From Squalus acanthias (Eukaryota), in assembly GCA_030390025.1 (NCBI GenBank), contig JASTWF010000048.1, forward strand, positions 1,984,001 to 2,048,000: a stretch of 64,000 nucleotides of DNA, given 5' to 3'. Made by a program: the position numbers and the translations under genes. The notes beneath the pieces are model-generated. The model worked only from the letters and a program-made list of their open reading frames with translations. It ran no database searches and was not told where the DNA came from. Of this stretch, positions 5,031-62,441 are shown piece by piece (the first letter of the stretch is position 1; each line of letters begins with the position of its first letter).

Positions 5031-5048
5031 GAGCGCCCTCTTCAGTCT
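5031..5048 (-). promoter_or_regulatory. CTCF-like motif AGACTGAAGAGGGCGCTC
   Basis: Matches CTCF core 3' half AGRKGGCRC; about 450 bp downstream of V5538 RSS. Confidence 0.5.
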
Positions 5049-5498
5049 CTGTGGAGAAAGAAAACACATTGTCAGTGTGTAAAAGCTCGACAGTCTTTAC
5101 TTCATTTCAAAATGTTTAACTTTTTTTTTCTTTCTGTTTATCTTTCTTTCTTTCTTTCTGTCTATCTTTCTTCCTTTCTTTCTGAATGTCTTTCTTTCTA
5201 TCTTCCTATCTTTCTTTTCGGACTTGTTTCTTTCTTCATATCATTCTTTCTTGCTGTCTTTCTGTCCTTTTTCGTTCTCCCTCTCCGTCTTTCCTTCTTT
5301 CTTTCTATCTTCCTTTCTATCGTCCTTGCGTTCTTCACTACATCTTTGCAGCTTCTCCAGAACCTTTTTTAAATGTAATTTCTCACATTTGTTCAAACCC
5401 TTTCCTTCTTGTCAAAACACATTCGCTCTGCAAAATAAACCCAACAGGATGCGGCACCGCGCTGTTTCATCACAACAGGTGTTGCCTGCAGCCTTTGG

Positions 5499-5537
5499 GG
5501 TTTTTGTTGAGCTCCTCCATCTCTCTGAGTCACTGTG
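5499..5537 (-). other. 23-RSS, consensus (CACAGTG-23-ACAAAAACC)
   Basis: Heptamer 5537-5531, spacer ACTCAGAGAGATGGAGGAGCTCA, nonamer 5507-5499. Confidence 0.95.
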
Positions 5538-6072
5538 AAGACTCCAGGCGCAGTAATACACGGCCGAGTGATTCGCCAGCAGGTGGGAGGACTCCAGGTT
5601 GAACTCGTTGTCATTCGGTCTCTCGGCGGTAAAACCGTAAACCGTCCCCTCTGCATTCACGTGATTAGCAATCGTGGAGTAAAACATTAACTGCGGCTCC
5701 TTCCCCGGGTCCTGTCTGTACCAGTACATGTATCCGCTACTGGCGCCTTCCACCTCGCACTTCAGTTCCACTCCCTTCCCAGGAATATTGGAGAGAGCGG
5801 CGGGAGTCTGGCGGATCGTCTGCGAGTTCACATCTGGGAAAGAGACGGTGAGAGGAAGAGATAAGTAAACAGGCGAATTCTCTGTTGTGGTGTTAAAAAG
5901 AATTAAAGAGCGAGAGAATGAAGGACAGAACGAAGGGAAGAATAGAAAAAAACGAAAGGAATAAAGAAAGAAGGAAAGAAATAAAGAGTAAAGAAAGTTT
6001 ATTGAAAAAGACGATTGTTTGAAAAAGTCCCTTACATTGAAATAAGATCATGAGACTCATTAACAGATACAT
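5538..6072 (-). CDS. TRBV: TCR V gene, family 1 (TRBV30-like, CAWS), intact; L exon 6072-6036, V exon 5833-5538
   Basis: L MYLLMSLMILFQ+T|GTAAG (37 nt); ttcccag|AT; VNSQTIRQTPAALSNIPGKGVELKCEVEGASSGYMYWYRQDPGKEPQLMFYS...SAVYYCAWS; 296-nt V exon. Confidence 0.9.
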
Positions 6073-6175
6073 CTTTTATTTAAAAGATTTACTTTTAAAA
6101 ATGAAATCAGCGAAAACAAGAGCGTTGAGTCTCGTGAGGATCCAACCCGCTCTTTTCAAATCATTGACGAGCGGA

Positions 6176-6188
6176 AGGAAGTGATGCA
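6176..6188 (+). promoter_or_regulatory. ETS plus CRE/AP1-like motif AGGAAGTGATGCA in family-1 promoter
   Basis: About 105-115 bp upstream of the ATG; also at 17156, 21517, 27845, 46818 (variant) and 61407. Confidence 0.55.
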
Positions 6189-6189
6189 G

Positions 6190-6372: not shown

Positions 6373-6379
6373 TGAGGAG

Positions 6380-7260: not shown

Positions 7261-7306
7261 TTTCTATTAAACCATGTTCCAGGCACTGAAATCTTTCATG
7301 GTCCTA

Positions 7307-7324
7307 GAGCGCCCTCTGCTGTCC
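7307..7324 (-). promoter_or_regulatory. CTCF motif GGACAGCAGAGGGCGCTC (linked to relic V at 9201)
   Basis: One mismatch to GGCCASYAGRKGGCRSY. Confidence 0.65.
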
Positions 7325-7912
7325 TTGTGGAAAAACACAGCGTCAGTCGACAAAAAACCANNNNNNNNNNNNNNNNNNNNNNNNNNNNNNNNNNNNNNNN
7401 NNNNNNNNNNNNNNNNNNNNNNNNNNNNNNNNNNNNNNNNNNNNNNNNNNNNNNNNNNNNNNNNNNNNNNNNNNNNNNNNNNNNNNNNNNNNNNNNNNNN
7501 NNNNNNNNNNNNNNNNNNNNNNNNNNNNNNNNNNNNNNNNNNNNNNNNNNNNNNNNNNNNNNNNNNNNNNTCGTTCTATCTTTCTGTCTTTGTGCCTTTC
7601 TTTCTCTATCCTTTTCTTTTTATTTTTCTATCACTATATCATTCTTTCCTTCATTACTTATATATTTAATTCCCTCTTTCTACCTTTTTTACATTCCTTC
7701 TTTCCTTTCTTTCTTTTTGCTTTGATTATTTGAGTTTGTTTTGCTCAGCCCCAACTCCACCTATCACTGAAAGGCAGTGACCTCGGCGGACTGAATGTGC
7801 TCAACACTTCAGACAGGACAGGTTGATGTTGTGCCCGAGCAACATATCCTTCTATTGCTTTCTCATTCTTATGTTTATGTAGCTTCCCCTTAAATGCATC
7901 TGTGCTACTCGA

Positions 7913-8978
7913 AGTAACTGGCTATCTCAAGAAGGCAGCGGGTGGTGGTGGATGGAAAATTTTCGGATTGGAGACCAGTTACCAGCGGTGTGCCACAGGG
8001 GTCGGTGCTGGGTCCTCTGCTGTTTGTGATTTTTATCAATGACTTGGAGGAGGGGACTGAAGGGTGGATCAGTAAATTTGCTGATGACACCAAGATTGGT
8101 GGAGTAGTGGATGAGGTGGAGGGCTGTTGTAGGCTGCAAAGAAACATTGATAGGATGCAGAGCTGGGCCGAAAAATGGCAGATGGAATTTAACCCTGATA
8201 AGTGCGAGGTGATTCATTTTGGTAGGGCAAATTTGAATAAGGATTACAGAGGCAACGGCAGGGTTCTAAGGAACGTGGAGGAACAGAGGGATCTGGGGGT
8301 TCATATCCACAGATCTCTGAAGGTTGCCACTCAAGTGGATAGAGCAGTAAAGAAGGCCTATAGTGTGTTAGCGTTTATTAACAAGGGGTTTGAGTTTAAG
8401 AACCGTGAGGTTAAGCTGCAACTGTACAGGACCTTGGTGAGACCACATTTGGAGTATTGTGTGCAGTTCTGGTCACCTCACTATAAGAAGGACGTGGAAG
8501 CATTGGAAAGAGTGAAAAGGAGATTTACCAGGATGCTGCCTGGTTTGGGGGGGAGGTCATATGAGGAAGGATTGAGGGAGCTTATGCTTTAATCTTTAGA
8601 GCGGAGGAGGATGAGAGGCGACTTAATAGAGGTTTATAAGATGATGAGGGGGATAGATAGAGTGTATGTTCAGAGACTATTTCCTCGGGTGGATGTAGCT
8701 GTTACAAGGGGGCATAACTATAAGGTGCATGGGGGGAGATATAGAAGGGATGTCCGAAGTAGATTCTTTACTCAGAGAGTCGTTGGAGTGTGGAATGGAC
8801 TGCCTGCTGTGATAGTGGAGTCGGACACTTTAGGAACTTTCAAGCGGTTATTGGATAAGCAGATGGAGCACACCAGAATGATAGGGAGTGGGATAGCTTG
8901 ATCTTGGTTTCGGACAATGCTCGGCACAACATCGAGGGCCGAAGGGCCTGTACTGTGCTGTACTGTTCTATGTTCTAT
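7913..8978 (+). mobile_element. Young 5'-truncated CR1 LINE (RT C-terminal part)
   Basis: [32 protein letters not shown]; (TGTTCTA)n tail; empty site gctactcgactcaa in paralog at ~37118. Confidence 0.92.
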
Positions 8979-9200: not shown

Positions 9201-9335
9201 CCTTCCCCGGGTATTGTCTGTGCCGGAACATGTTAGGGTTACCGATAGTCTTCACAGAGCATTTCAGTTCCACACGCTCCCGAGGTAATTTGAAGACAGC
9301 GGCGGGACTCTGGCGGATATTCTGCGAGCTCACAT
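9201..9335 (-). pseudogene. Family-1 V relic (FR1 to mid-FR2 only, no RSS, leader ATG lost)
   Basis: VSSQNIRQSPAAVFKLPRERVELKCSVKTIGNPNMFRHRQYPGK then fused to CR1; conserved W changed to R. Confidence 0.85.
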
Positions 9336-10110: not shown

Positions 10111-10455
10111 TGAAACAAACTGCATTGAAAGGTAAATGTGCGCTGATCAGAACTGGTCTCCAGACTCAGACAGTGGAGCAGGAGTGAGAGATACGCGGTC
10201 CCACAGCCCCGCACATCCATCACCCTCCGCCCCTCCTGATTCTTCCACAAATGCAAGGATTGGTTACTGGTTGCAGGGCGGGGATGACGTATCACGTCAG
10301 ACGACACGCCTCACCATCTTGTCCACAGCCATTTAATGAGGGGAGGGGAGAGCAGGGAATATGGGATGCGAGGGGAAGGGGAGGAAGGAGTAGGAGAGAG
10401 TAGAGTAGAGGAGTAGAAGGATTGAAGGAGAAAGTATGCACTGAACTAATATCTA

Positions 10456-10475
10456 GTGCTGCCACATGGTGGTGG
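10456..10475 (-). promoter_or_regulatory. CTCF motif CCACCACCATGTGGCAGCAC, 34 bp beyond nonamer
   Basis: Near match to CCACCAGGTGGCAG; same position in four family-2 copies. Confidence 0.65.
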
Positions 10476-10509
10476 AAATGGAGCACTGAACTCCCAGTCG
10501 TCCGCTGCA

Positions 10510-22916: not shown

Positions 22917-23518
22917 AAGACTCCAGGCGCAGTAATATACGGCCGAGTGATTCGCCTGCAGGCTGGAGGACTTCAGGTTGAACTCGTTTCCAGTCGGTCG
23001 CTCGGCGGTAAAACCGTCCACCGTCCCCTCTGGATTCACGAGATTGGTACCCGTGGAATAAAACATAAATTGCGCCTCCTTCCCCGGGTATTGTCTCTAC
23101 CAGAACATATACTTATTACTGGTGCTTTCCAGAATGCACTTCAGTAACACTACATCCCCGGGAAATCTGGAGACAGCGGCGGGAGTCTGGCGGATAGTCT
23201 GCGAATTCACATCTGGGAAAGAGACAGGGAGAGGAGGAGGTCAGTAAACAAGAACATTCTGGGTGTTGGAGCAATAAAGCANNNNNNNNNNNNNNNNNNN
23301 NNNNNNNNNNNNNNNNNNNNNNNNNNNNNNNNNNNNNNNNNNNNNNNNNNNNNNNNNNNNNNNNNNNNNNNNNNNNNNNNNNNNNNNNNNNNNNNNNNNN
23401 NNNNNNNNNNNNNNNNNNNNNNNNNNNNNNNNNNNNNNNNNNNATTATTAACATGAATTAATGCTTGAAAAAGTCCCTCACAGTGAAACAAGATAATCAG
23501 ACTCAGAAACAGATACAT
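22917..23518 (-). pseudogene. Family-1 V pseudogene, single nonsense (TGG TAG); L 23518-23482, V 23212-22917
   Basis: Full-length 296-nt V exon; stop at 23099-23097 replaces the Y of WYRQ. Confidence 0.85.
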
Positions 23519-24242: not shown

Positions 24243-24854
24243 CTGTGGAGAAAGACAACACAATGTCTGTGTATAAAAAATAGTATTTTACTTACTTACC
24301 TTCTTTCTATATTTCGTTCTATTTTTATTTCTATCTTTCTGCGTTTCTATCTTTCTTTATTTTGTGTATTTTTCGTTCTATCCTTCTCCTTTTGTCTTTC
24401 TTGCTTCCTTACTTTCTTTCTTTCTTTCTATCGTCCCTCTTCCTTTATTTCTTTCTCTCTTTCTTCCTTTCTTTCTTTTATTTTTCCTAACTTCCTTTCT
24501 TTATATCTTTCTTCTGTACGCCTCCCCTAAAAAACAAATTGTTAATCTTTAAGGACCTCTGTCATGTCACAACTCAGCCTTCTCTTCTCTGCAGTAAACA
24601 GTCCCAGCCTCTTCAGCCTGTCCTGATAGTTAGTACCTCTCAATTCTGATCTCATCCTTGTTAATCATTCTTTCTACCTTCTCCAGTGCCTCTATAATTA
24701 ATCTCTCACTTTTAATCTTCCTGTTGTCAAAATCACGTTCGCTCTGTAAAATAAACCCAACAGGACGCGGCACCGCGGGGTTTTACATTAAACAGTTGTT
24801 TCCTGCCGCCTTTGGGGTTTTTGTTCATCTCCTCCATCTCTCTGAGTCACTATG

Positions 24855-25368
24855 AAAACTCCAGGCGCAGTATTACACGGCCGAGTGATTCGCCCGCAGG
24901 CTGGAGCCCTTCAGATTGAACTTGTATTCATTCGGTCGCTCGGCGGTAAAACCGTCCACCGTTCGCCCTGGATCCACGGCATAGGTCGTCAAGGAGTAAA
25001 ACATCAACTGCGGCTCCTTCCCCGGGTATTGTCTATAACAGGACATGCGATTGCTACTGTCCCCCTCCACATCGCACTTCAGTTCCACTCCATCCCAGGG
25101 AAATCTGGAGACAGTGGCGGGAGTCTGGCGGATATTCTGCTAGTTCACGGCTGGGAAAGAGACGGGGAGAGGAGGAATTCAGTAAACGGTGTTATTTGTA
25201 AATATGGAGAAAGAAATAAAGAATGAAAGAAAAAAGGAAAGAAAGAATGAAAAAAGTCAGAAAGAAAGAAGGAAAGAAGGACAGAAAGAAAGAGTAAAGG
25301 AAGCTAATTAACTAGATATATTGTCCCTTACGGTGGTGCAAAATTATAAGACCCAGTAACAATTACAT
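24855..25368 (-). pseudogene. Family-1 V pseudogene, multiple stops and broken RSS; L 25368-25332, V 25150-24855
   Basis: ATG TAA in leader; AAC TAG at V start; W>C; GTG TAA before the second Cys; heptamer CATAGTG (24854-24848). Confidence 0.9.
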
Positions 25369-26542: not shown

Positions 26543-26560
26543 GAGCGCCCTCTACTGTCC
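26543..26560 (-). promoter_or_regulatory. CTCF motif GGACAGTAGAGGGCGCTC
   Basis: Downstream of V27160. Confidence 0.65.
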
Positions 26561-27120
26561 CTGTGGAGAAACAAAGAACAATGTCACTGTATAAAAAAGT
26601 ACTTTTAATTACTTTCCTTCTTTCTATATTTCGTTCTTTCTTTTCAATATCTTTCTTTCCTTCTCATTTTTCTTCCCAGCCTCCAACCTTTGTTTTTCTT
26701 TATTTTGTTCTTACATTATTTCTTCCTTTCTTTACTTCTTTCTTTCTTTATTTCCCTAAATTCCTGTCTTTCTTTCTCTTCTAATTTCTATCTTCCTTTC
26801 TTTCTATCTTTCTTCCCTACGCCTAAACTATCAAAACCCATTGATCATCTTTAAAGACCTCTGTCAGATCACCCCTCAGCCGTCTCTTTTCTAGACAAAA
26901 ATCCCGAACCTGTTCAGCCTTTCCTGATAGCTTGAAACTCTCAATTCTAGTGTCATCCTGGTTAATCATTATTTGCATCTGTTCCAGTGCCTCTATATCT
27001 AATATCTCACTTTTATTCTAACCCGTCTCTTCTTGTTGTCAAAAACACGTTCGCTCAGCAAAATAAAACCAACAGCACTGCACCGTTTTATCTTAAACTA
27101 GTGTTTCCTGCCGCATTTGG

Positions 27121-27159
27121 GGTTTTTGTTGAGCTCCTCCATCTCTCTGAGTCACTGTG
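27121..27159 (-). other. 23-RSS, consensus
   Basis: CACAGTG-23-ACAAAAACC. Confidence 0.95.
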
Positions 27160-27731
27160 AAGACTCCAGGCGCAGTAATACACGGCCGAGTGATTCGCCT
27201 GCAGGCTGGAGGACTTCAGGTTGAACTCGTTCCAATTCGGTCGCTCGGCGGTAAAAGCCGTCCACCTTCCTTCTGCAGTCGCGCTTTGTACAGTTGTGGA
27301 GTAAAACATCAACTGCGGCTCCTTCCCCGGGTATTGTCTGTACCAGAACATGCGATCAGCACTGATGCCCTTCACATCGCACTTCAGGTCCACTCCCTCC
27401 CGAGCAGATTTGGAGACAGCGGCGGGAGTCTGTTGGATAATCTGCGAGTGCACATCTGGGAAAGAGAGGGAGAGAGGAGGTCAATAAATTGGACCATTCT
27501 GGGAATGGGAGAAAGAAGGAAAGAAAAAAGNNNNNNNNNNNNNNNNNNNNNNNNNNNNNNNNNNNNNNNNNNNNNNNNNNNNNNNNNNNNNNNNNNNNNN
27601 NNNNNNNNNNNNNNNNNNNNNNNNNNNNNNNNNNNNNNNNNNNNNNNNNNNNNNNNNNNATTAACAAGACCTATTGTTTGAAATAATCCCTTACGGTGAA
27701 ACAAGATCATCAGACCCAGTAACAGATACAT
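27160..27731 (-). CDS. TRBV: TCR V gene, family 1, intact; L 27731-27695, V 27455-27160
   Basis: MYLLLGLMILFH|HVHSQIIQQ...CDVKGISADRMFWYRQ...YYCAWS; intron partly in N gap. Confidence 0.88.
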
Positions 27732-32206: not shown

Positions 32207-32224
32207 GAGCGCCCTCTTCAGTCT
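32207..32224 (-). promoter_or_regulatory. CTCF-like motif AGACTGAAGAGGGCGCTC
   Basis: Downstream of V32610. Confidence 0.5.
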
Positions 32225-32570
32225 CTGTGGAGAAAGAAAACACAGTGTCAGTGTGTGAAAGCTCGACACTCTTTTTACTTCATTTCCTTATTTATATCAT
32301 TCTTTCTTTCTTTCTGTCTTTCTTTCTCTTTTCGTTCTTCTGCTTTTTCTTTCCTTCTTTTTTCTATCTTCCTTTCGTTCTATCGTTCTTCACTATATTT
32401 AACTTATCTTTCTTTGCCGCTTCTCCAGTGTCTTTTTAATCTAATTTCTCGATTTTATTCCAGCCCGTCTGGTATTCTTGTCAAAAAACACGTTTGCTCT
32501 GCAAGATAAACCCAACAGGAGGCGGCACCGCACGGTTACATCATCAACAGGTGTTTCCTGCCGCCTTTGG

Positions 32571-32609
32571 GGTTTTTGTTGAGCTCCTCCATCTCTCTGA
32601 GTCACTGTG
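32571..32609 (-). other. 23-RSS, consensus
   Basis: CACAGTG-23-ACAAAAACC. Confidence 0.95.
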
Positions 32610-33136
32610 CAGACTCCAGGCGCAGTAATACACGGCCGACTGATTCGCCTGCAGGCTGGAGGACTTCAGATTGAACCGGTTGTCATTCGGTCGCTTGGCG
32701 GTAAAACCGTACACCGTCCCCTCTGGATTCACGTGATTGATACCCGCGGAGTGAAACATCAACTGCGGCTCTTTCCCCGGGTCTTATCTGTACCAGTACA
32801 TGTATCCGCTACTGGCGCCCTCCACCACGCACTTTAGTTTCACTCCCTCCCCAGGAATATTGGAGAGAGCGACGGGAGTCTGGCGGACCATCTCTGAATT
32901 CACGTCTGGGAAAGAGATGGAGAGAGGAGGAGGTCAGTAAACAGGGGCATTCTGGGTTGTGGGGAAAGAAAGAAGGAAAGAGCGAGAGAAAGAGAGAATG
33001 AAGGAAACAACGAAGAAAGAAAGAAGGAAAGAAAGAAAGAAAAACGTAAGACTAAAGAAAGTTTATTAACAAAGATAATTGTGTGTAAAAATCTCTTACA
33101 CTGAAATAAGATCATGAGACTCAGTAACAGATACAT
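32610..33136 (-). pseudogene. Family-1 V pseudogene, single nonsense (WYR-TAA); L 33136-33100, V 32905-32610
   Basis: Stop at 32786-32784; otherwise intact with consensus RSS. Confidence 0.85.
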
Positions 33137-35024: not shown

Positions 35025-35063
35025 GGTTTTTGTTGAGCTCCTCCATCTCTCTCAGTCACTGTG
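35025..35063 (-). other. 23-RSS, consensus
   Basis: CACAGTG-23-ACAAAAACC. Confidence 0.9.
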
Positions 35064-35513
35064 AAGACGCCAGGCGCAGTAATACACGGCCGAGTGATTC
35101 GCCCGCAGGCTGGAGGACTTCAGATTGAACTCGTTGCCGTTCGGTCGCTCGGCGGTAAAACCGTCCACCGTCCCATCTGGATTCACGTGATTGTTAGCCC
35201 TGGAGTTAAATATCAACTGCGGCCCGTTCCCCGGGTCCTGTCCACTCCCTCCCCAGGAATATTGGCGAGAGCGGCGGGAGTCTGGCGGACCGTCTCTGAG
35301 TTCACGTCTGGGAAAGAGACTGAGAGAGGAGGACGTCAGTAAACAGGGGCATTCTGGGTTGTGGAGAAAGAAAGAAGTAAAGACCGAGAGAAAGAGAGAA
35401 TGATGGAGCAATGAAGGAAAGAAAGAAAGATAGAAAGAAACAAAAACGAAAGAAAGGTTATTAACAAAGATTATTGTTTGAAATACGATCATGAGACGCA
35501 GTAACAGCTACAT
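35064..35513 (-). pseudogene. Family-1 V pseudogene: 52-bp deletion removing first Cys/CDR1/Trp; leader ATG TAG with donor deleted
   Basis: V exon 35307-35064 is 244 nt versus 296 nt. Confidence 0.88.
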
Positions 35514-36687: not shown

Positions 36688-36705
36688 CATCGCCCTCTGC
36701 TGTCC
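36688..36705 (-). promoter_or_regulatory. CTCF motif GGACAGCAGAGGGCGATG (linked to relic V37357)
   Basis: Paralog of 7307. Confidence 0.55.
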
Positions 36706-37356
36706 TTATGGAGAAACACAGCGTCAGTGCAAAAAAACCACCCGTCTGTTTACTTTCTTTCTTTCGTTCTTTCTTTCGTTCTTTCACTCTTTCTTTCTTT
36801 CTTTCTGCCTTTCTTTCTCTATACTTTTCTTTCTATTTCTCACTCATTATATAGCTCTTTCCTTCGATACCTCTATCTTTATTTCCCTCTTTCTCTCTTT
36901 TCTCCACGCCTTCTTTCCTTTGATTCTTTTTGGATTGACTATTTTTATTTGTTTTGCTCAGAGCCAACTTCACCTATCACTGAAAGCCAGTGACCTCGGC
37001 TGCTTGAATGTGCTCAACACTTCAGCACGGGACGTGTTGATGTTGTACCCCATCACCATATCCTACTATTCCTTTCTCCCTCATGTGTTTATCTAGCTTC
37101 CCCTTAAAAGCATCTTTGCTACTCGACTCAACCACTCTCTGTGCTAGCGAGTTCAATGTTCTCGCCATTCTCAGAGGAAAGAGGATTTTCCTGAATTCCC
37201 TATTTGGATTTATTAGTGACTATCTTATATTTATAACTCCGAGCTTTGGTCTTCCCCACATGTGGAAACATTTTCCATACATCGATCCTTTAGAAACCCT
37301 TTCATAATTTTCGCTATCAGCTCACCCATTAGGCTTCTCTTTTCTAGAGAATGCAG

Positions 37357-37484
37357 CCTTCCCCGGGTATTGTCTGTGCCGGAACATGTTGGGGTTACTG
37401 ACAGTCTTCATTTCAGTTCCACACGCTCTCGAGGTAATTCAGAGGCAGCGGCGGGAATCTGGCGGATACTCTGCGAGCTCACAT
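37357..37484 (-). pseudogene. Family-1 V relic (copy 2)
   Basis: Same truncation point as 9201; extra 7-bp deletion; acceptor lost. Confidence 0.85.
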
Positions 37485-38613: not shown

Positions 38614-38633
38614 GTGCTGCCACCTGGTGCCGG
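38614..38633 (-). promoter_or_regulatory. CTCF motif CCGGCACCAGGTGGCAGCAC, 34 bp beyond nonamer
   Basis: Contains CACCAGGTGGCAG. Confidence 0.65.
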
Positions 38634-38667
38634 AAATGGAGCACTGAACTCCCAGTCGTCCGCTGCA

Positions 38668-38706
38668 GGTTTTTGTAGCTGGGGAGTCGCTTTCTCAAAC
38701 GCTGTG
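38668..38706 (-). other. 23-RSS (CACAGCG-23-ACAAAAACC)
   Basis: Abuts YYCACSS. Confidence 0.9.
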
Positions 38707-39628
38707 CGCTACTACAAGCACAATAATAGACAGCGGTGTGAGACGGAGAGGCGGCGCTCAGTTCCAAAGTCAACAGCGTAGTGCTGGTTCTGTCGGCCTT
38801 AAAAGACTCGGTCGTGTACTTCGTAACATCACCTGCTCCAACGGAATTGAAAAGAGCTTCTAATGCCCGGTCGGGTTGTTGTCTGTACCAGTACATATAG
38901 GGACAGCCAGCATTCGTCAGCGTGCATCTGAGCGTGGTCGACTCTCCTGCTCCAATCGATAGGACAGAAGGCGACTGCTCCACGTACGAGGCGAGTATTT
39001 CTGTCGAACGCAACATCGATTAGTTTCTTGTTTATGTCAATAATTCATTAAAGCGCGGACGACAGAGAAAAATAACTTCCATTCATAAAGCTCCATTCAC
39101 GACTTCAGAAACTCACAAAGCTCTTTAAAACCAATGAGGTACTAATTAAAGTGTAGTCATTGCTGTAATGTAGGAAAGGAGACAGCCAACTTGAGCACAG
39201 CAAGCTCCCACATACTGCCTATAAATAAATGACCAGTACATCAGGTTTTTGGTATTTGTTGTGGGGTTAATGTTGGACCAGGACAATGGCGACAACATCA
39301 CTGACTTTCTTCCAATAGTGCAATGGGATAATTTGTGTCCACCTGAGAGGGCAGCTCAGTTTTATGCCTTATCTGAAAGATGACACCACCGTAAGTGCAG
39401 CACCCCCTCAGTGCTGGCCTCGGGAGTGCCAGCATAGATTTTGTGCTCAAGTCTCATTAATAAGACTCGAACCCAAAACCTCTGATTCAGAGGCAAGGTT
39501 TCTACCAGCTGAACAACAGCTGACATTATAGTAAATTATTCTACAAGGACATCTGCATAAGTTTGTTAATTTGACTTACGTGAGATCAGTGTCACCATCA
39601 ACGTTAGATAATGAGCTTCACGAAACAT
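38707..39628 (-). CDS. TRBV: TCR V gene, family 2, intact, extra Cys in CDR1; L 39628-39580, V 39000-38707
   Basis: MFREAHYLTLMVTLIS|QILASYVEQSP...CTLTNAGCPYMYWYRQ...YYCACSS; Deu-SINE in intron (~39075-39527); ETS-CRE at 39747-39761. Confidence 0.88.
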
Positions 39629-43081: not shown

Positions 43082-43120
43082 GGTTTTTGTCGCACGGTTC
43101 AGTCTAAGTGTATCTCTGTG
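43082..43120 (-). other. 23-RSS (CACAGAG-23-ACAAAAACC)
   Basis: Abuts YFCACSD. Confidence 0.9.
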
Positions 43121-44268
43121 CATCACTGCAGGCGCAGAAATACCGCGCCGTGTCGTTCGGCCGCACCATCGATATCTTCAGATCGAAGGAGTTATCTGCA
43201 GTTTTCTTGGCCCAAAATCTCTCCGTGATCCCCTCCGACCTGGTCGGGTCACCTTCATGCACCGCATACAAGAGGTCCTGGAGTCCCAATCCCGGGAGCT
43301 GGCGGTACCAGTACACATAAGCATCACTGCCGCGTTGGGTACACGGGATAGTCACAGACTCGCCCTCTCTCACCGACACATACTCCCGGGACTGCACTAT
43401 CTTCTGAGACTCGCCAACTCCTGGAAGGAAAATAGGAATGAACAGCAAAGAGAGACAGCTATTTCCCCAGAAATAAGACACACTAACCTGTTTAATTATT
43501 TACTGTTCTGAGACTGATTTTTCCCTTTCACTCACACACTTGCTTTTCATTTCAATCGATGTATTTCCTCTATTTTCAAATGAACATAATTGAGCTGACC
43601 AAAGGATTGTATAGGCTAGATAGGGCGAAATTGTTTCCTCTGTCTACCCTATCACCCCGCTGTTCCTCTGCTCCTTAACATAAACATTCAACCTGCTCTA
43701 CCGCGCGACATTCTGGTTTTAGTCGATTTGCCAAAACCAGATTAATATTCAAAAGCCGCAGGCACTTGTAGTTAGACTGGAGCCAATAGGTTTAGTGGAG
43801 CTCTCCTTGTAATATGGATTGGCGTGGAAATGTCAGTCACTGGTTCAACTATTATAGAAGAATCCCTGTTAACTAAATGTCCATCCCACCCTTATTGAAC
43901 ACAATTTATCTCCTTTAAGTGTCACTAAACAGATATAGTCTACTTGCTCCAACAACCCTGTTCTCTTCCATTCCTTTGTTCTTTCTTCCGTTTTAGCTAT
44001 TTTCTTTCTGTCTATCATTTTTCTTTAGTTCTGTCTTTCTTTCCATCTTTCCTTCGTTCTATCATTCTTTCTTGCTATCTTTCTTTATTTCTTTTTATTT
44101 CCTCCATTCATTCTTTCTCTTTTTGTTGCAAATTAAAACTTGTTTTGTAGGCTCTTTAATTGAATCCTTCTCCAAAAGCCAAAGGCCTCCATGTGACACC
44201 GAGATCTCGCTTTACTTACCCGCCAATAGGAACAGCGGCAACGTACAGGACAGGAGGCAAGTCCGCAT
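43121..44268 (-). CDS. TRBV: TCR V gene, family 3, intact; L 44268-44220, V 43420-43121
   Basis: MRTCLLSCTLPLFLLA|GVGESQKIVQSREY...CTQRGSDAYVYWYRQLPG...YFCACSD. Confidence 0.88.
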
Positions 44269-45635: not shown

Positions 45636-45653
45636 GAGCACCATCTTTAGTCT
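45636..45653 (-). promoter_or_regulatory. CTCF-like motif AGACTAAAGATGGTGCTC
   Basis: Downstream of V46202. Confidence 0.45.
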
Positions 45654-45879
45654 CCGTGGAGAAAGACAACACACTGTCAGTGTGTAAAATCCCGAAAGTC
45701 TATTTACATCCTTTGCTTCTTTCGATCATTCTTTCTTTGTTTCTCACATGATTTGTTTTTCTTCTTTCTTCCTTCCTTCCTTTCTGTCTTTCTTCTTTCT
45801 TTCATTTTTCTTACATTCTGTCTTTCTTTCTTTCTGTCATCCTTTCTTTTCTGCCTTGTTTCTATCTTTGTATCATTCT

Positions 45880-46162: not shown

Positions 46163-46201
46163 GGGTTTTGTTCTGCTCTTCCATCTCGCTGAGCCACTGT
46201 G
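46163..46201 (-). other. 23-RSS (CACAGTG-23-ACAAAACCC)
   Basis: One nonamer mismatch. Confidence 0.88.
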
Positions 46202-46704
46202 AAGACTCCAGGCGCAGTAATACACGGCCGAGTGATTCGCCCGCAGGCTGGAGGACTTCAGGTTGAACTCTTTCTGATTCGGTCGCTCCGCGGTGAAACC
46301 GTCCACCGTCCGCTCTGGATTCACAATATTGGTACCCGCGGAGATAAACATGGACTGCGGCCCCTTCCCCGGGTCCTGTCTGTACCAATACATGTAACTG
46401 CTACTGGCACCCTCCAAGTTGCACTTTAGTTCGACTCGCTCCCCAGCAAATTTGGAGACAGCGGCGGGAATCTGGCGGATAGTCTGCGGTTTCGCGTCTG
46501 AGAAAGATACAGGGAGAGGAGGAGATTAGTAACCAGCGGCATTCTGGGTTGTGGGGAAAGAAAGAAGTAAAGAACGAGAGAAAGAGAGAATGAAGGAAAC
46601 AACGAAGGAAAGAAGAAATAGTAAAGAATGGATATTACAAAGATTATTGTGTGAAAAAATCACTTACATTGAAATACAATTATGAAACTCAGTAACAGAT
46701 ACAT
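46202..46704 (-). CDS. TRBV: TCR V gene, family 1, intact; L 46704-46668, V 46497-46202
   Basis: MYLLLSFIIVFQ|YAKPQTIRQIPAAVSKFAGERVELKCNLEGASSSYMYWYRQ...YYCAWS. Confidence 0.9.
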
Positions 46705-47935: not shown

Positions 47936-47953
47936 TAGCGCCCTCTGCTGTCA
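47936..47953 (-). promoter_or_regulatory. CTCF motif TGACAGCAGAGGGCGCTA (linked to relic V48781)
   Basis: Paralog of 7307. Confidence 0.65.
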
Positions 47954-48780
47954 TTGTGGAGAAACAGAGCGTCAGTCGACCAAAACCCACCNNNNNNNNN
48001 NNNNNNNNNNNNNNNNNNNNNNNNNNNNNNNNNNNNNNNNNNNNNNNNNNNNNNNNNNNNNNNNNNNNNNNNNNNNNNNNNNNNNNNNNNNNNNNNNNNN
48101 NNNNNNNNNNNNNNNNNNNNNNNNNNNNNNNNNNNNNNNNNNTTCCTTTTCTCTTTGTCTCACTTTCTTTCTGTCTTTCAATTTCTCTCAACCTTTCACT
48201 CTCTCTTTCATTCCTTCTTTCTTTCTTTCCTTCTTTCTTTCTTTCTTTCTTTCGTTCTTTCTTTCTCTATCCTTTACTTTTTCTTTCTCTATCATTATAT
48301 TGTTCTATCTTTCTTTACTTCCATCTTTATTTCCTTCTTTCCTTTCTTTCTTTTTGCATTGATTATTTTCATTTGTTTTGCTCAGAGCCAACTACACCTA
48401 CCATTTAAAGCCAGTGACCTCGGCTGACTGAATGTGCTCAACACTTCAAACAGGGCAGGTTGATGTTGTGTCCGATCAGCATGATCTTCTTTTCCTTTCA
48501 CCCGCCATGTGCTTATCTAGCTTCCCCTTAACTGCAACTGTGTCATTCGTCTCCACTACTCCCTGTGGTAGCGAGTTCAACTTCTCGCCATTCTCTGGGT
48601 AAAGAACTTTCTCCTGAATTCCCTATTTGGACTTATTAGTGACTATCTTATATTTATGACCCCGAGCTTTTGTCTTCCTCACAAGTGGAAGCATCTTCCC
48701 TACATTTAGCCTATCGCACGCCTTTTCATAATTTTCGCTATCAGGTCACCCCTCAGTCTTTTCTTTTCTAGAGAAAGCAG

Positions 48781-48915
48781 CCTTCCACGGATATTGTCTG
48801 TGCCGGACCATGTTAGGGTTACTGACAGACTTCACAGAGCATTTCAGGTCCACACGCTCCCGAGGTAATTTGGAGACAGCGGCGGGAGTCTGGCGGATAC
48901 TCTGTGAGCTCACAT
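48781..48915 (-). pseudogene. Family-1 V relic (copy 3)
   Basis: Same truncation point as 9201 and 37357. Confidence 0.85.
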
Positions 48916-50075: not shown

Positions 50076-50095
50076 GTGCTGCTACCTGGTGGCGG
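50076..50095 (-). promoter_or_regulatory. CTCF motif CCGCCACCAGGTAGCAGCAC, 34 bp beyond nonamer
   Basis: One core mismatch (GGC>AGC). Confidence 0.55.
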
Positions 50096-50129
50096 AAAAT
50101 GAGCACTGAGCTCCCATTCATCCGCTGCA

Positions 50130-50168
50130 GGGTTTTGTAGCTGGGGAGCCGCATTCTCAAACGCTGTG
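50130..50168 (-). other. 23-RSS (CACAGCG-23-ACAAAACCC)
   Basis: Abuts YYCACST. Confidence 0.85.
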
Positions 50169-51090
50169 CGGTACTACAAGCACAGTAATAGACAGCGGTG
50201 TGAGACGGAGAGGCGGCGCTCAGTTCCAAAGTAAACAGCGTAGTGCTGATTCTTTCGGCCTTAAAAGACTCGGCCGTGTAGCTCGTAACAGGACCAGCTC
50301 CAGCAGAATAGAACAGAGCTTCTAGTGCCCGGTCGGGTTGTTGTCTGTACCAGAACATTACGGGACGGCCAGTATTCGTCAGCGTGCATCTGAGCGTGGT
50401 CGGCTCTCCTGCTCCAATCGATAGGACAGAAGGCGACTGATCCACGTACAAGGCGAGTATTCCTGTCGAGTGTTACATTGATTAGTTACTTATTTTTGTC
50501 AATAATTGATTAGAGCGCCGGCTACAGAGAAAGAGAACTTCCATTCATAAAGCTGCATTCACGAGCACAGAAAGTCGCAAACCTCTTTACAACCAATGAA
50601 GTACTGATTAAAGTGTAGTCATTGTTGTAATGAAGGAAAGGAGACAGCCAATTTGAGCGCAGCAAGCTCCCACATACTGCATTGAAATAAATGACCATTA
50701 CATTTGTTTTTTGGTGTTTGTTGTGGGATAAATGTTGGCACAGGACACCGGCGACAACTTCGCTGCTCTTCCTCCAATAGTGCCCTGGGATCATTTACAT
50801 CCACCTGAGAGGGCAGCTCAGTTTAACGCCTTATCCGAAAGATGGCACTTCCGAAAGTGCAGCACTCCCTCAGCGCTGGTCCCGGGAGTATCAGCGTATA
50901 TTATGTGCTCAAGTCTCAGGAGTAAGACTGAAACCCATAACCTCTGATTCCGAGGAAAGGTTTCTACCAGCTGAACACGAGCTGACATTATAGTACATTA
51001 TTCCACAAAGACCTCTGCATAAGTTTGTTAATCTGACTTACGTGGGATCAGCGTCACCATCAACGTTAGATAATGAGCTTCATGAAACAT
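50169..51090 (-). CDS. TRBV: TCR V gene, family 2, intact; L 51090-51042, V 50462-50169
   Basis: MFHEAHYLTLMVTLIP|RILALYVDQSP...CTLTNTGRPVMFWYRQ...YYCACST; Deu-SINE in intron (~50537-50987); ETS-CRE at 51209-51223. Confidence 0.88.
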
Positions 51091-55421: not shown

Positions 55422-55439
55422 GAGCGCCATCTCCTGGCC
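55422..55439 (-). promoter_or_regulatory. CTCF motif GGCCAGGAGATGGCGCTC (best match in window)
   Basis: Near-consensus; downstream of pseudogene V56300. Confidence 0.7.
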
Positions 55440-55692
55440 CCGGGGAGAACGCAAACACGGGTTTCAGTGTGTAAAATCCACCAGTCTTTTTATTTTAGTT
55501 CCTTCTTTATATCTTCCTCTCATTATTTCTACCATTCTTCTAGTCTTTCTTTCGTTCTCTCTTTCTTTCAATCCTTTTTTTCTTTCTTGATATCTATTGC
55601 TTTTTTTCTATCCATCTAACTTTCATTCTATCATTCTGCAGTACATCTAACTTAATCTTTCTTTGCACCTTCTTCGGTTCCTTTATATCTAA

Positions 55693-55985: not shown

Positions 55986-56299
55986 CCAATCTTGAAGATC
56001 TCTATCAGGTCACCCCTTAGCCTTCTCCTTTCTAGAGAAAAGAGATCCAGCCTGTTCAGCCTTTCATAAATTCTCAGTTCTGGTATCATTCTTGTTATTC
56101 CTGATTTTCAGTTTCTTCAGTGCCTTTACATCTACTCTCTCTCGTTAAATCAAACCCGTCTCCTCTTCTTCTCAAAAGCACGGTCTTTCTCCAAAATAAA
56201 CCAAGCAGGACGCAGCACCGCGCGGTTTTATATTAAACAATTGTTTCCTGCCGCCTTTCGAGTATTTTTTGAGCTCTTCCATCTCTCTGAGTCAATGTG

Positions 56300-56484
56300 A
56301 AGACTCCAGGCGCAGTAATACACGGTCGAGTCATTCGCCCGCAGGCTGGTGGACTTCAGGTTGAAGTTGTAGTCATTCGGTCGCTCGGCGGTAAAACCAT
56401 CCACCCCCACCTCTGCAGTTACACTTTGTACAGTTAGGGACATAAACATCAACTGCAGCTCCTTCGCTGGATATCAGTTCACGT
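56300..56484 (-). pseudogene. Family-1 V pseudogene: ~111-bp FR1-CDR1 deletion, acceptor lost, leader deleted, degenerate RSS
   Basis: 185-nt remnant ending STVYYCAWS; heptamer CACATTG; nonamer AAAAATACT. Confidence 0.88.
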
Positions 56485-57574: not shown

Positions 57575-57594
57575 GTGCTGCCACCAGGCGGCGG
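57575..57594 (-). promoter_or_regulatory. CTCF motif CCGCCGCCTGGTGGCAGCAC, 34 bp beyond nonamer
   Basis: Positional paralog of 10456, 38614 and 50076. Confidence 0.6.
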
Positions 57595-57628
57595 GAAATG
57601 AGCATTTAACTCCCATTCATCCGCTGCA

Positions 57629-57667
57629 GGTTTTTGTAGCTGGGGTGCCGCGTTCTCAAACGCTGTG
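57629..57667 (-). other. 23-RSS (CACAGCG-23-ACAAAAACC)
   Basis: Abuts YYCACSI. Confidence 0.9.
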
Positions 57668-58542
57668 CGATACTACAAGCACAGTAATAGACAGCGCTGT
57701 GAGACGGAGAGGCGGCGCTCAGTTCCAAAGTAAACAGCGTAGTGCTGCTTCTTTCTGCCTTAAAAGAGTCGGCCGTGTATTTCGTAACAGCACCTGCTGT
57801 AGCAGAATAAAAAAGAGCTTCTAATTCCCGGCCGGGTTGTTGTCTGTACCAGTACATTTGGTTATAGCCAGTATTCGTCAGCGTGCATCTGAGCGTGGTC
57901 GACTCTCCTGCTCCAATCGATAGGACAGAAGGCGACTGGTCCACGTACGAGGCGAGTATTCCTGTCGAATGCAACATCGATTAGTTTCTTGTTTTTGTCA
58001 ATTATTTAGAGCGCGGACTACAGAAAAAAAGAACTTCCATTCATTAAGCGCATTCAAGACCTCAGAAAGTCACAAAGCTCATTACAACCAATGATGTACC
58101 GATTAAAATGTAGTCATTGTTGTAATGTCGGAAAGGAGGCAGCCAATGTCATCACAGCAAGCTCCCAGTTACTGCATTGAAACAAATGGTTAATATTGGC
58201 CCAGAACACCGGCGGCAACTTCGCTGCTCTTCTTCATGGGATCATTTAATGTCCACCTGAGAGGGCAGCTCGGTTTAACGCCTTATCTGAAAGATGGCAC
58301 CTCCGATAGTGCAGCACTCCCTCAGTGCTGGTCTCGGCAGTATCAGCATAGATTTTATACTCAAGCGTCAGGAGTAAGACTCCAACCCAAAACTTTTGAT
58401 TCAGAGGCAGGTTTTCTACCAGCTGAACAAGAGCTGACATTATAATACATTAAACTACAAAGACCCCTGCATAAATTTGTTAATTTGACTTACGTGGGAT
58501 CAGTGCCACCATCAACGTTAGATAATAAGCTTCATGAAACAT
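57668..58542 (-). CDS. TRBV: TCR V gene, family 2, intact; L 58542-58494, V 57961-57668
   Basis: MFHEAYYLTLMVALIP|RILASYVDQSP...CTLTNTGYNQMYWYRQ...YYCACSI; Deu-SINE in intron (~58033-58440); CRE kept but ETS core GGAA>GGAG at 58661-58675. Confidence 0.88.
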
Positions 58543-60393
58543 GATTTATTTATTCGACACTGGCTCGCTGTTGGATCGAGTATAGCTCAATACCACTTTT
58601 AAAGCCAGTTCGTCAGTTCGATCTGATTAAATACGAAGCTTCCGGTTGTAATTGTCACTCATACGTCACCTCCTGCGTAGCCAACGCTTCATCCCATTCC
58701 TTCGGTAGTTCAGCAACGTCATACAATCCTGCAGCACAGAAGGTTAAGGAGAGAACTAATAGACGTGTTCAAAATTACGAATGGTTTTGACAGAGTTGAT
58801 AGGAAGAGACTATATCCACTGGCAGGAGGGCACAGATTTAAGATAATTAGCAGTAGAACCAACGGGGAGATGAGGGGACATAAATGTTATTACAGACAGT
58901 TGTCATGATCTGGAATGCATTGCCTGAAATTGCGGTGGAAGCAGATTCAATAATAACTTCCCAAAAGGGAATTGGATATAAACTCGATAAGGAAAAAAAA
59001 AAGGGCTATGGGGAGAGAGCAGAGGAGTAAGACTCAATGAATAAGAGGGACCAAAACTAGGGACGTTATGAGATATACACTAATTAATCCAATAGGGAAT
59101 TCAGGAGAAACCTCTTTATCCAAAGTGTGGTGAGAATCTGGAACTTGCTAACACGTGGAGTGGTTGAGCCAAATAGCATCGTTGCATTTAAGGGGAAGCT
59201 AGAAAGTACATGAGAGAGAAAGTAATAGAAGGTTATGTTAATGGTTGTATTGAAGAGGGATATGACGAAGCCCGGGGGGTTAAATTGGATAGGTCTTCAA
59301 AAGAGCCGGATCGGACCCGATGTGCCGAATGGCCTCCTTCAGTGCTGTCGGATTCTGATTCTAGGAAAAACGGAAAGTTGCAGAGAAAAAATGTTCTCGT
59401 GTTACATGCCGTGCAGGTTTCAGTTCCTATGTGCTGAACGAGAATTCAAGGGTTAAATTTATTGCTGGGCTGAATTCGCAGATTCTTTGAAAAGCACATC
59501 AAAAGGCACTTCGAGTCTGATAGAGAACTGTTTAAACGGTTTTCAACAGATTCTGAAACTGCCTTCATGAGACAGGTGTCCCGGATACAAACATATCTGA
59601 AGATGCGTCTCGCCTTCGCACAGTGTGAAACATCGGTGAGATGTTTAAGGGCTCTAACATTAACTGTTTCCTAATTGTATGGGGTGTTCTCCTTAGAGCA
59701 GAGAAGGTTAGGCCTAGATTTACCAGAATGGTAGCAGGGATGAGGGACTTCAGTTTTGTGGAGAGACTGGAGAAGCCGGGATTGTTCTCTCTACAGCAGT
59801 GAAGGTTAAGGGGAGATTTAATAGAATTAGTCAAAACGATGAAGGATTTTGATAGAGTAAATACGGAGAAACTGTTTCCACTGGCAGAAGGTTCGGTAAC
59901 CAGAGGTCACAGCTTAAAAATAAGTGGAAAGAGAACCAGAGGGCGAGATAAGTAGAATTCTTATACTCAGCAGGTTATGTTCTGGAATGCACTGCTTGGA
60001 AGTGTGGTGGAAACAGATTCTTTCACAGAGCCAGCACAGACTGGATGGGTCGAATGGCTTCCTGTTGTGTTGTATAATCGGAGCAAATGCTGTTAGATAG
60101 ATGGAAGATACACATCACCCATGATCTAATTGGCTAGCAAAGCAGAGTCGAGAGGTGGAATGTCCCCCTCTTGTTCCGGTGCAACAGGCTGGAGTGGCTG
60201 TGTGGGGCTCCTCTAGTTACTGTGTAACAGGCTCGTGTGGCTGAATGGGCATACTTCTGTACCTGTGTATACGGTCTCGAGGAGGCTTAATTGCCTTCCC
60301 CTGTTCCTATGTAACAGGCGCAAGGGGACTGAATGGTCTCCTTCTGTTCCATATTAAACAATATTACAAGCAACCGTGTGGTTCATGCACCTA

Positions 60394-60411
60394 GAGTGAC
60401 CTCTTCAGTCT
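60394..60411 (-). promoter_or_regulatory. Weak CTCF-like motif AGACTGAAGAGGTCACTC
   Basis: Positional paralog downstream of V60804. Confidence 0.35.
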
Positions 60412-60764
60412 CTGTGGGAAAGAAAACACAGTGTCAGTGTGTGAAAGCACGACAGTCTTTTTACTTCATTTCCTTCTTTTTATCTTAGTTTCTTCTTCCT
60501 TTCTTTCTGTCTTTCTGTCTTCCTTTCTCGCTGGTTTCTTTCTTTACAACATTCTTTTTTTCTATCTTACTTTCGTTCTATCGCTTTTCACTATATTTAT
60601 TTCATTCTTTCCAGCTTCTCAGTGCCTTTTTTAATCTAATTTCTCACTTTTATTCTAGCCCGTCTATTCTTCTTGTCAAACACTCGTTCGCTGTGCAAAA
60701 TAAACCCAACGCGACGCGGCACCGAGCGGTTTTATCTTAAACAGGTGTTTTCTGCAGCCTTTGG

Positions 60765-60803
60765 GGTTTTTGTTGAGCTCCTCCATCTCAATGAGTCAAT
60801 GTG
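60765..60803 (-). other. 23-RSS (CACATTG-23-ACAAAAACC)
   Basis: CAC intact, position 5 variant. Confidence 0.85.
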
Positions 60804-61293
60804 CAGACTCCAGGCGCAATAATACACGGCCGAGTTATTCGCTCGCAGGCTGGAGGACTTCAGGTTGAACTCGTTGTCATTTGGTCGCTCAGCGGCAAAA
60901 CCGTCCACCGTCCCCTCTGCAGTGACACGTTGTACAGTTAGGGAGATAAACATCAACTGCGGCTCATTCCCTGGATATTGTCTATACCAGTACATGTAAG
61001 GGTTACTTGCTCCCTCCACAGAGCATTTCAGTTCCATTTCACCACCAGGAATTTTGGAGACAGCGGCGGGAGTCTGGCGGATGCTCTGCGAGTTCACATC
61101 TGGGAACGAGACAGGGAGAGGAGGAGGTCATTAAACAGGGACTACCGGTCACCGGAAAAAGAAAGAATACGGAATGAAAGAAAGAATAAAGACAGAAAGA
61201 AAGAAAACGTAAAGAAAGGCTATTAACAAGAATTAATTTTTGAAATAGGTCCTTACAGGGAAAGAATATCATTAGACCCAGTAACATATACAT
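60804..61293 (-). CDS. TRBV: TCR V gene, family 1, intact; L 61293-61257, V 61099-60804
   Basis: MYMLLGLMIFFP|YVNSQSIRQ...CSVEGASNPYMYWYRQ...YYCAWS. Confidence 0.9.
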
Positions 61294-62423
61294 TTTTTGC
61301 TGGAAGCTTTTCTCTTAACAATGAAAAGAGCGAGAACAGGAGAGTTGCGTCTTGTGAGGTTCCAACCCGCTCTATTCAAATCATTGAGGAAAGCATGAAG
61401 AGCGTGAGGAAGTGATGCAGGTTTGGACTGTCCAACCCCTACCTCCCTGATTGACAGCCCCGCCTCTCCCTCTCTGATTGGCAGGCCAGCTACTCCTTCT
61501 CTGATTGACAGTAATTAGAGCAGCCGGGAGCTGAATGTTGCAATGGGGACACAGACGGATTAAATGAACGAGCAAAACAGAGGTAGATGGAGCTAAATGT
61601 CGGCAATGTGAGATCATCCACTGCCAACCTAAGAAAGAGAGATCAGAAAATTTGCTGAATGGTGAAAAGCTGGGAACTGTGTAGGTGCAAAGGGAATTAG
61701 GTTTCAAGCTTCACAAATCGCTCTCGGCCAGTAGACAGGTGCAAAAATCAAAAAGGCTAATGGCATGTTGGTCTTTATCTCAAGGGTGCTGGAATACAGA
61801 GGAGAGAAAGATAAGCTTCAGTTGTACAGAGACCTTGTCAGACTCCATCTGGAACAAGACTTTCAGATCTGGGCAACAAACTTCAGGAAGGATATATTGG
61901 CGTTGGAGGGAGAGCAGCAAAGATTCACCAGAAAGATACCAGGGCTTAGAGAATTAATATATGAGGACAGATTACATAGACTAGGCTTGTATTCCATTGA
62001 GTACAGAAGATTGAGCAGTGATCCTACTGAGGTGTTGAAAATGTTAAAAATATTGGAGACTGTAGATAGAGAGAAGGTATTCCCTCTGGTGAGGGGCAGT
62101 CCAGAACTAGGGGACATCAAATGAGCTTTAAAGCGAGTCCGATCAAGGGTCATATCTGGAGGCCCCACTTGACACAAAAGAAAATGAAAATCTGCAGTTC
62201 TCTCGCCCATAGTGCTGTTGAGGGAGAGCTCAACTGGAGATTTAAAAACTTAGAATTCGGTTATCTAAGGGTATGAAGGGTTAAGGAACCAATGTGGGTA
62301 AGTGGAGTTAAGATTCAGATCAGCCATGATATGATTGAACGGCGGTTCAGCTCATGGGCCTGAATGGCCTCCTCCTGCAACGAATAAACCATGTTCCAGG
62401 CACTGGTTGGTTTCATGGTCCTG

Positions 62424-62441
62424 GAGCGCCCTCTGCTGCCC
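62424..62441 (-). promoter_or_regulatory. CTCF motif GGGCAGCAGAGGGCGCTC
   Basis: Paralog of 18174; its V is expected beyond the window end. Confidence 0.6.

Follow-up and report, generated by a model that had tools for sequence, protein, structure and literature searches.

Why should a T-cell receptor (TCR) locus of a shark carry, downstream of most of its variable (V) segments, a motif that resembles the binding site of CTCF and that reads largely in one direction? This question is raised by a stretch of 64,000 nucleotides (nt) from Squalus acanthias (GCA_030390025.1, contig JASTWF010000048.1, positions 1,984,001 to 2,048,000), which is called the window throughout. A preliminary description had listed 19 minus-strand motifs and proposed that they are co-oriented CTCF sites. 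Here, the observation itself is confirmed, and the interpretation is partly supported. All 19 motifs are present, with a register shift of 1 nt in one family, and their sequence suggests that the array probably works like a known system, namely as a co-oriented V-region CTCF array in a new lineage.

The window was mapped with BLAST and was found to contain 23 V-like segments in three families. Family 1 has 16 segments (11 with a recombination signal sequence (RSS) and 5 truncated), family 2 has 5, one of which is cut at the window edge, and family 3 has 2. All 17 V-end RSSs are of the 23-spacer type and lie on the minus strand; 15 of them pass an RSS scan and 2 are degraded and were recognized by alignment only. 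The family-2 V proteins start with YVEQSP or YVDQSP and end with YYCAC, and peptides of the YVEQSP/YYCAC type are the primer peptides of nurse shark TCR-beta V2/V3 (PMC5931798). The PDB matches for families 1 and 2 include TCR beta chains, mixed with antibody domains. Because of these peptides and matches, together with the RSS type, we read the window as a section of a TRB V array of a cartilaginous fish, to which families 1 and 3 are assigned by their interspersion with family 2. No diversity (D), joining (J), or constant (C) segments were seen inside the 64-kb window. The array is assembled from cassettes of 1-5 kb that were duplicated at ~80-90% identity.

Both strands were scanned with a matrix that approximates the CTCF matrix MA0139.1 of JASPAR. 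At p < 1e-5, the window contains 14 minus-strand and 3 plus-strand matches, compared with 2.0 on both strands together in a first-order Markov background. At p < 1e-4, the corresponding numbers are 26, 18, and 17.2. With this matrix, CTCF-type matches exceed the background, and at the stricter threshold they lie mostly on the minus strand (14 to 3); among the listed sites, 57576 reads better on the plus strand. The three plus-strand matches (5573, 32509, and 57246) are attributed to chance, being single-copy variants in a V exon, in post-RSS DNA, or in repeats. The 18-mer of the preliminary description has 12 matches with at most 3 mismatches, all on the minus strand, compared with a mean of 0.04 in dinucleotide shuffles.

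Among the 19 listed sites, scored for the core motif that zinc fingers 3-7 read, 13 were found at p < 1e-5 and 17 at p < 1e-4; those at 45636 and 60394 fail at both thresholds. The published genome-wide CTCF consensus quoted in PMC6746451 provided a check that is independent of the matrix. With at most 1 mismatch, it has 11 minus-strand and 2 plus-strand matches, and all 11 on the minus strand are listed sites, none of the 19 being a perfect match. Five copies (5031, 32207, 34561, 45636, and 60394) have 3-5 mismatches to this consensus and, judged by their letters, are not convincing CTCF sites. The motif lies downstream of 18 of the 23 V-like segments. The five segments without it are two 3'-truncated family-1 pseudogenes, both family-3 segments, and the edge-cut family-2 segment, and the V of the motif at 62424 is outside the window. 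The individual sites are given below with their matrix scores.

5031..5049, minus strand: family-1 core, weakened, clade A; 11.7; 449 nt past the RSS of an intact V
7307..7325, minus strand: family-1 core, strong; 18.5; V at 9201-9327 is a 5'-half pseudogene without RSS
16059..16077, minus strand: family-1 core in the ancestral state; 18.6; 361 nt past the RSS of an intact V
18174..18192, minus strand: family-1 core; 18.6; 777 nt past the RSS of an intact V
22293..22311, minus strand: family-1 core; 17.9; V with a stop codon
24225..24243, minus strand: family-1 core, damaged at G13; 10.2; V pseudogene with a broken heptamer
26543..26561, minus strand: family-1 core; 17.9; intact V
32207..32225, minus strand: family-1 core, weakened, clade A; 11.7; V with a stop codon
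34561..34579, minus strand: family-1 core, clade A, decayed; 8.3; V with an internal deletion
36688..36706, minus strand: family-1 core; 16.2; V at 37357-37476 is an RSS-less pseudogene
45636..45654, minus strand: family-1 core, clade A, decayed below threshold; 3.7; intact V
47936..47954, minus strand: family-1 core; 17.9; V at 48781-48907 is an RSS-less pseudogene
55422..55440, minus strand: family-1 core with the best family-1 score; 18.7; V 5'-deleted, with a degraded RSS
60394..60412, minus strand: family-1 core, clade A, decayed; 7.2; V open reading frame intact, heptamer with one mismatch
62424..62442, minus strand: family-1 core; 17.5; homology to the 18174 unit stops at ~62980 at an insertion, and the V is outside the window
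10457..10475, minus strand: family-2 core; 14.1, G10>T; 34 nt past the nonamer
10482..10490, minus strand: candidate upstream motif (zinc fingers 9-11); 7/9; 18 nt before core position 4
38615..38633, minus strand: family-2 core; 18.3, C4>G; 34 nt past the nonamer; candidate upstream motif at 38640-38648 (7/9)
50077..50095, minus strand: family-2 core; 17.0, G13>A; 34 nt past the nonamer; candidate upstream motif at 50102-50110 (6/9)
57576..57596, either strand: near-palindromic family-2 core; minus 14.8 (57576-57594), plus 17.7 (57578-57596); upstream motif 5/9 on minus

The 15 family-1 motifs share one homologous box of ~80 nt, which lies between a purine microsatellite and the end of a repeat that we take to be of the CR1 type. 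Within the window this box was met only in the context of V units. Its distance to the RSS nonamer ranges from 345 to 821 nt in the 11 of 11 RSS-bearing units and is not fixed. The core of the reconstructed ancestor scores 18.6 (p 3e-7). The five unconvincing copies form clade A, on the stem of which 7 bits were lost, and 9 of the 10 other copies score at least 16. A core of the same type, with A at position 4, is found in two mouse sites tested in PMC11417384, HS-94 and HS+66. An upstream motif for zinc fingers 9-11 reaches at most 5/9 matches in all 15 copies. Directly before the core, in 5050-5085 and in all 15 boxes on the minus strand, there is a branch-point-like CTGAC, a pyrimidine tract, and CAG; the splice-like AG is intact in 10 of the 15, and no open reading frame continues after it. 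The box was also considered as a J-type RSS, given its heptamer-like CTGTG and T-rich upstream sequence. This candidate was rejected: the spacing is 6-8 nt, not 12/23, and the RSS scan is empty there.

The family-2 element is positioned differently. Its core lies exactly 34 nt from the RSS nonamer in 4 of 4 copies when measured to core position 1, or 37 nt to position 4. In the 19-mer CTCF register, the sites begin at 10457, 38615, 50077, and 57576, 1 nt from where they had been placed. The consensus core scores 23.5 (p 5e-9). Each copy has its own damaging change (at G10, C4, G13, and A6 plus A9, respectively), and all of them score at least 14. The core is near-palindromic, with plus-strand readings of 10.9, 10.5, 8.1, and 17.7, the last of which, at 57576, beats the minus-strand reading of 14.8. 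The upstream motif thus matters for the orientation. This motif, read by zinc fingers 9-11, is optional and accompanies ~13-15% of CTCF sites. A candidate 9-mer starts 18 nt before core position 4 of the family-2 copies and agrees with an approximate consensus of this motif at 7, 7, 6, and 5 of its 9 positions; 0.26% of the window positions reach at least 7/9. None of the four plus-strand readings has an upstream motif. The consensus used is close to the CTGCAGTTCC-like motif of PMC12885311, and, read by eye, HS-94 and HS+66 of the mouse have offsets of 17 and 18 (PMC11417384). The candidate upstream motif and its spacing favour the minus orientation of the family-2 sites.

The family-2 core is bracketed by a 10-nt direct repeat with a 45-nt period (10439-10493, 38597-38651, and 50059-50113, minus strand), which is degraded in the 57576 copy. 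It resembles a small tandem duplication or a target-site duplication and could mark the origin of the site. Since this 10-mer has a second copy immediately past the core, the upstream-motif match could stem from the repeat. Paired elements resembling cAMP response elements (CREs), together with GC and CCAAT boxes, are found ~160 nt past the family-2 sites (10290-10304, 38447-38461, and 49909-49923, minus strand) and are probably promoter elements of the next gene or pseudogene.

How many independent events do the 19 sites represent? They derive from two independent elements that were multiplied by tandem duplication, so 19 cannot stand as an independent count. Since head-to-tail duplication forces co-orientation within a family, the common orientation amounts to two coin flips. 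The null model was built from 1000 column-shuffled matrices applied to the real window, with its duplications kept. At least 14 matches at 12.8 bits or more on one strand were obtained with 1 of the 1000 matrices, and at least 11 matches at 16 bits or more with 0 of 1000. Matches to both families on one strand were likewise obtained with 0 of 1000. Two V families with unrelated flanks do carry the motif on the same strand, as the preliminary description had noted. CTCF-type motifs exceed chance even with the tandem duplication kept in the null.

Judging from these motifs, we favour by a small measure the proposal that CTCF binds the strong copies and that these make up a redundant array of anchors, which point in one direction, face the recombination centre, and act mainly at the level of the locus. 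About 13 strong copies would bind CTCF, on average one per 4.6 kb. A CTCF motif read forward faces its loop partner. Because the V orientation is normal, the D-J-C centre would lie on the RSS side, and convergent CTCF sites would be expected there. Cohesin extruding from the centre would pause at successive sites of the V array; alternatively, loops anchored in the array would reel the recombination centre in. In either case, V-to-DJ contacts would spread, and 23-RSS V segments along the array would meet DJ-beta.

The two elements may differ in their roles. The family-1 element would be a redundant locus-level anchor under weak selection per copy and not a switch for its own V, because its distance to the RSS varies and the motif is strong beside RSS-less pseudogenes. 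Such redundancy would explain both the weak constraint on single copies and the strong motifs beside RSS-less pseudogenes. The family-2 element is a candidate for a gene-level pause site next to the RSS, as in Igh, because of its fixed 34 nt from the nonamer and its candidate upstream motif.

The evidence for selection on the motifs is mixed. The family-1 substitutions were placed on a tree built from the flanks. The 21 core substitutions have a mean cost of 1.7 bits, compared with 3.4 expected from the flank spectrum (P 0.008). The result was P 0.005 for the inner core positions only and P 0.019 for a position-only permutation. For the 10 copies outside clade A it was P 0.006, or 0.027 without the single improving change, this split having been made post hoc. 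The idea that differences between copies fall on degenerate CTCF positions is thus borne out in family 1 but not in family 2, where 5 of 6 changes are on important positions.

Several results speak against the proposed anchor array. The preliminary description had named a motif no more conserved than its flanks as a refuting outcome, and for the immediate flanks this is what was found. Over 9 of the 11 RSS-bearing family-1 units, the other two being left out because of deletions, pairwise divergence is 0.178 in the core, 0.199 in the upstream flank, 0.185 in the first 13 nt downstream, and 0.151 when measured at fourfold sites. More distant non-coding flanks have 0.24-0.30. There is consequently no conservation peak at the family-1 motif relative to its immediate flanks or to fourfold sites. 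By parsimony, over the columns with at least 11 of 15 rows filled, core positions 4-18 have 1.07 changes per site, compared with 1.0-1.4 in the adjoining 15-column windows, and P is 0.076 against all flank columns. A tree simulation of the tip scores gave P 0.012 at the flank rate and 0.093 at a matched event count. The decay of clade A is indistinguishable from neutral (P 0.22, with a post hoc split). In family 2, there are 6 changes over 19 core sites and 8 over 34 and 5 over 19 flank sites, or 0.32 per site in the core, 0.24 in the RSS-to-motif spacer, and 0.26 in the other flank, and the mean loss of 5.0 bits exceeds the expected 3.7. Motif score and V integrity are not linked: the mean is 13.0 for intact V segments (n = 6) and 15.2 for the broken or V-less set (n = 9, including 62424, whose V may lie outside the window), with P 0.81. 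Finally, two of the features that define the RSS-associated sites of Igh, conservation over the spacer and loss of the motif at non-functional V segments, were not found. Unlike in mouse Igh (PMC6746451), intact V segments of the shark do not have better motifs than broken ones; this contrast rests on family 1, as family 2 offers none.

The lack of a conservation peak, the damage in 4 of 4 family-2 copies together with the decaying clade A, and the independence of motif quality from V status would all fit an explanation in which the V cassettes, as they duplicated, took along two genuine but incidental CTCF sites, or CTCF-like sites from old repeats, most copies of which now drift. The number of sites and their co-orientation would then be by-products of head-to-tail duplication of 1-5 kb cassettes at 80-90% identity. 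The surroundings of the elements also suit this explanation, the family-1 box lying between a microsatellite and a repeat end (presumably CR1-type) and the family-2 core between two copies of the 10-nt direct repeat. We consider it possible, though on the unlikely side. It does not account for family-1 substitutions that avoid important positions (P 0.005-0.03 across the variants of the test), for two independent, near-optimal, same-strand sites past V RSSs that 0 of 1000 shuffled matrices equal, or for a box that is met only beside V units within the window.

CTCF could also be bound here for a local purpose, as an insulator that separates neighbouring V transcription units by promoter insulation or by blocking read-through, and not for V-to-DJ contacts. 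Six family-1 boxes lie ~1.1-1.25 kb upstream of the next V leader, and CRE-like elements follow within ~160 nt of the family-2 sites in 3 of 4 copies. CTCF sites that include the upstream motif block enhancers strongly (PMC11417384, PMC12885311), and the mouse Tcrb sites are mostly near promoters (PMC5859386). However, the distance from the box to the next leader ranges from ~0.7 to 2.5 kb over the array, its agreement in some units is explained by their shared duplication, and what family 2 keeps constant, at 34 nt, is the distance to the RSS; we regard local insulation as distinctly unlikely. Least probable by a wide measure of doubt is that CTCF is not involved at all. The family-1 box would then be a 3' splice site, belonging to an untranslated exon of germline transcripts, and the core of family 2 an E-box. 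In most copies, the family-1 core directly follows the branch-point-like CTGAC, pyrimidine tract, and CAG, and the family-2 consensus includes CAGGTG. Yet three independent events have destroyed the splice AG in 5 of 15 copies, at a rate like that of neutral sequence, the E-box survives in only 2 of 4 family-2 copies, and neither element accounts for the matrix-compatible substitutions or the upstream motif. The search of Rfam gave 0 matches in the window, and there is thus no RNA-family explanation.

The proposed anchor array has counterparts in mammals. All bound V-region CTCF sites of mouse Igh and Tcrb point to D-J-C (PMC5859386, Loguercio 2018); the preliminary description had named the shared orientation of such sites in mammalian loci. 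Mouse Tcrb has 18 bound sites for 33 V segments, mostly near promoters and 2 near an RSS (PMC5859386). The shark array is like it in the type of locus, the many V-region sites, their single orientation, and the side expected to face D-J-C. It differs in that the motif follows 18 of 23 V-like segments, with about one strong site per 4.6 kb, and in that the shark sites are described at the level of motifs. As the mouse Tcrb sites are mostly at promoters, positional homology with the shark sites is not evident. The earlier label of a RAG-scanning-type architecture is over-specific, because mouse Tcrb combines bidirectional extrusion with diffusion-based synapsis, and scanning was ruled out as the sole mechanism (PMC10772921, Allyn 2024).

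In Igh, RSS-associated CTCF sites lie 17-19 bp (mouse) and 19 or 48 bp (human) from the nonamer (PMC6746451, Ciccone 2019; PMC4914699, Bolland 2016), the species named being mouse, human, chimpanzee, and rabbit (PMC6746451). The family-2 site resembles these in being specific to one V family, at a fixed distance past the nonamer, and in one orientation, but it is located in a TCR locus. Among cartilaginous fish, the boundaries of topologically associating domains (TADs) in the skate have a CTCF orientation code with MA0139-type motifs and loop-extrusion genes (PMC10115646, Marletaz 2023). The likeness is the orientation bias; the skate data concern fin tissue and TAD borders, and antigen-receptor loci do not come up in the 8 passages on CTCF considered from that paper. 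No account of CTCF in shark or other non-mammalian antigen-receptor loci was found among the matches listed, with most subscription papers outside the scope of the search, and a term search of a 2026 evolutionary review (PMC13433984) gave no mention of CTCF.

If the sites are occupied and face a convergent D-J-C site, CTCF/cohesin folding would have been coupled to RAG recombination at the base of the jawed vertebrates or by repeated convergence. The CTCF control of V(D)J recombination described in mammals would then plausibly extend to the oldest of the lineages whose receptors depend on RAG. A more far-reaching version is that the last common ancestor of sharks and mammals already guided its V(D)J recombination by CTCF. 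The shark TCR-beta locus would combine an Igh-style pause site next to the RSS (family 2) with a dense array of co-oriented anchors, and V pseudogenes would have been kept in part for the CTCF anchors that they carry, which would make V usage more even. We regard this version as tentative and rather improbable. The locus may also serve as a natural experiment on V usage, as paralogous family-1 V segments with near-identical RSSs carry strong, weak, or dead motifs. The V segments with an RSS are as follows.

5499..5828, minus strand: family-1 V exon with 23-RSS, intact, CAWS end
16439..16768, minus strand: family-1 V exon with 23-RSS, intact
18970..19299, minus strand: family-1 V exon with 23-RSS, intact
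22878..23207, minus strand: family-1 V pseudogene (stop codon) with 23-RSS
24816..25140, minus strand: family-1 V pseudogene with a broken RSS (heptamer)
27121..27447, minus strand: family-1 V exon with 23-RSS, intact
32571..32887, minus strand: family-1 V pseudogene (stop codon) with 23-RSS
35025..35295, minus strand: family-1 V pseudogene (internal deletion) with 23-RSS
46163..46488, minus strand: family-1 V exon with 23-RSS, intact
56262..56474, minus strand: family-1 V pseudogene, 5'-deleted, with a degraded RSS
60765..61094, minus strand: family-1 V exon with 23-RSS, open reading frame intact, heptamer with one mismatch
10510..10839, minus strand: family-2 V exon with 23-RSS (YVEQSP...YYCAC)
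38668..38997, minus strand: family-2 V exon with 23-RSS
50130..50459, minus strand: family-2 V exon with 23-RSS
57629..57958, minus strand: family-2 V exon with 23-RSS
2477..2806, minus strand: family-3 V exon with 23-RSS; no CTCF motif visible, N gap starts 67 nt downstream
43082..43410, minus strand: family-3 V exon with 23-RSS; no CTCF motif visible, N gap starts 47 nt downstream

The lack of a CTCF motif in family 3 is uncertain because the N gaps begin so shortly after the RSS. These gaps, at 2253-2409 and 42759-43034, sit at GATA-type microsatellites. A family-3 remnant at 14173-14724 (minus strand) consists of the intron end and the first V-exon codons, followed by unrelated sequence and N gaps.

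The exons of family 1, the largest family with its 16 segments, end in CAWS (for example 16478-16768, minus strand), a signature like that of human TRBV30 and mouse Trbv31, the lone inverted mammalian V-beta. Divergence in family 1 is 0.073 over the last 45 nt of the exon and 0.095 in the RSS spacer (for example 5499-5582), much lower than the 0.192 of the exon as a whole or the 0.151 at its fourfold sites. This suggests that the spacer is under selection or that gene conversion has acted on the 3' end. The excess of the whole-exon value over that of the fourfold sites suggests diversifying selection.

Three segments look like retroelement insertions. The segment at 63400-64000, upstream of the 62424 box, is presumably a Penelope-like endonuclease end, and 7918-8901 and 53469-55003 are taken to be CR1-type reverse-transcriptase fragments. 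One CR1-type fragment separates the pseudogene ending at 9327 from its CTCF box. An E-box, CACCTG, is kept ~17 nt past the nonamer in 7 of 11 family-1 units (about 5460-5500 and equivalents), and the ratio of observed to expected CpG in the family-1 post-RSS stretch was determined to be 1.12, compared with 0.62 for the window.

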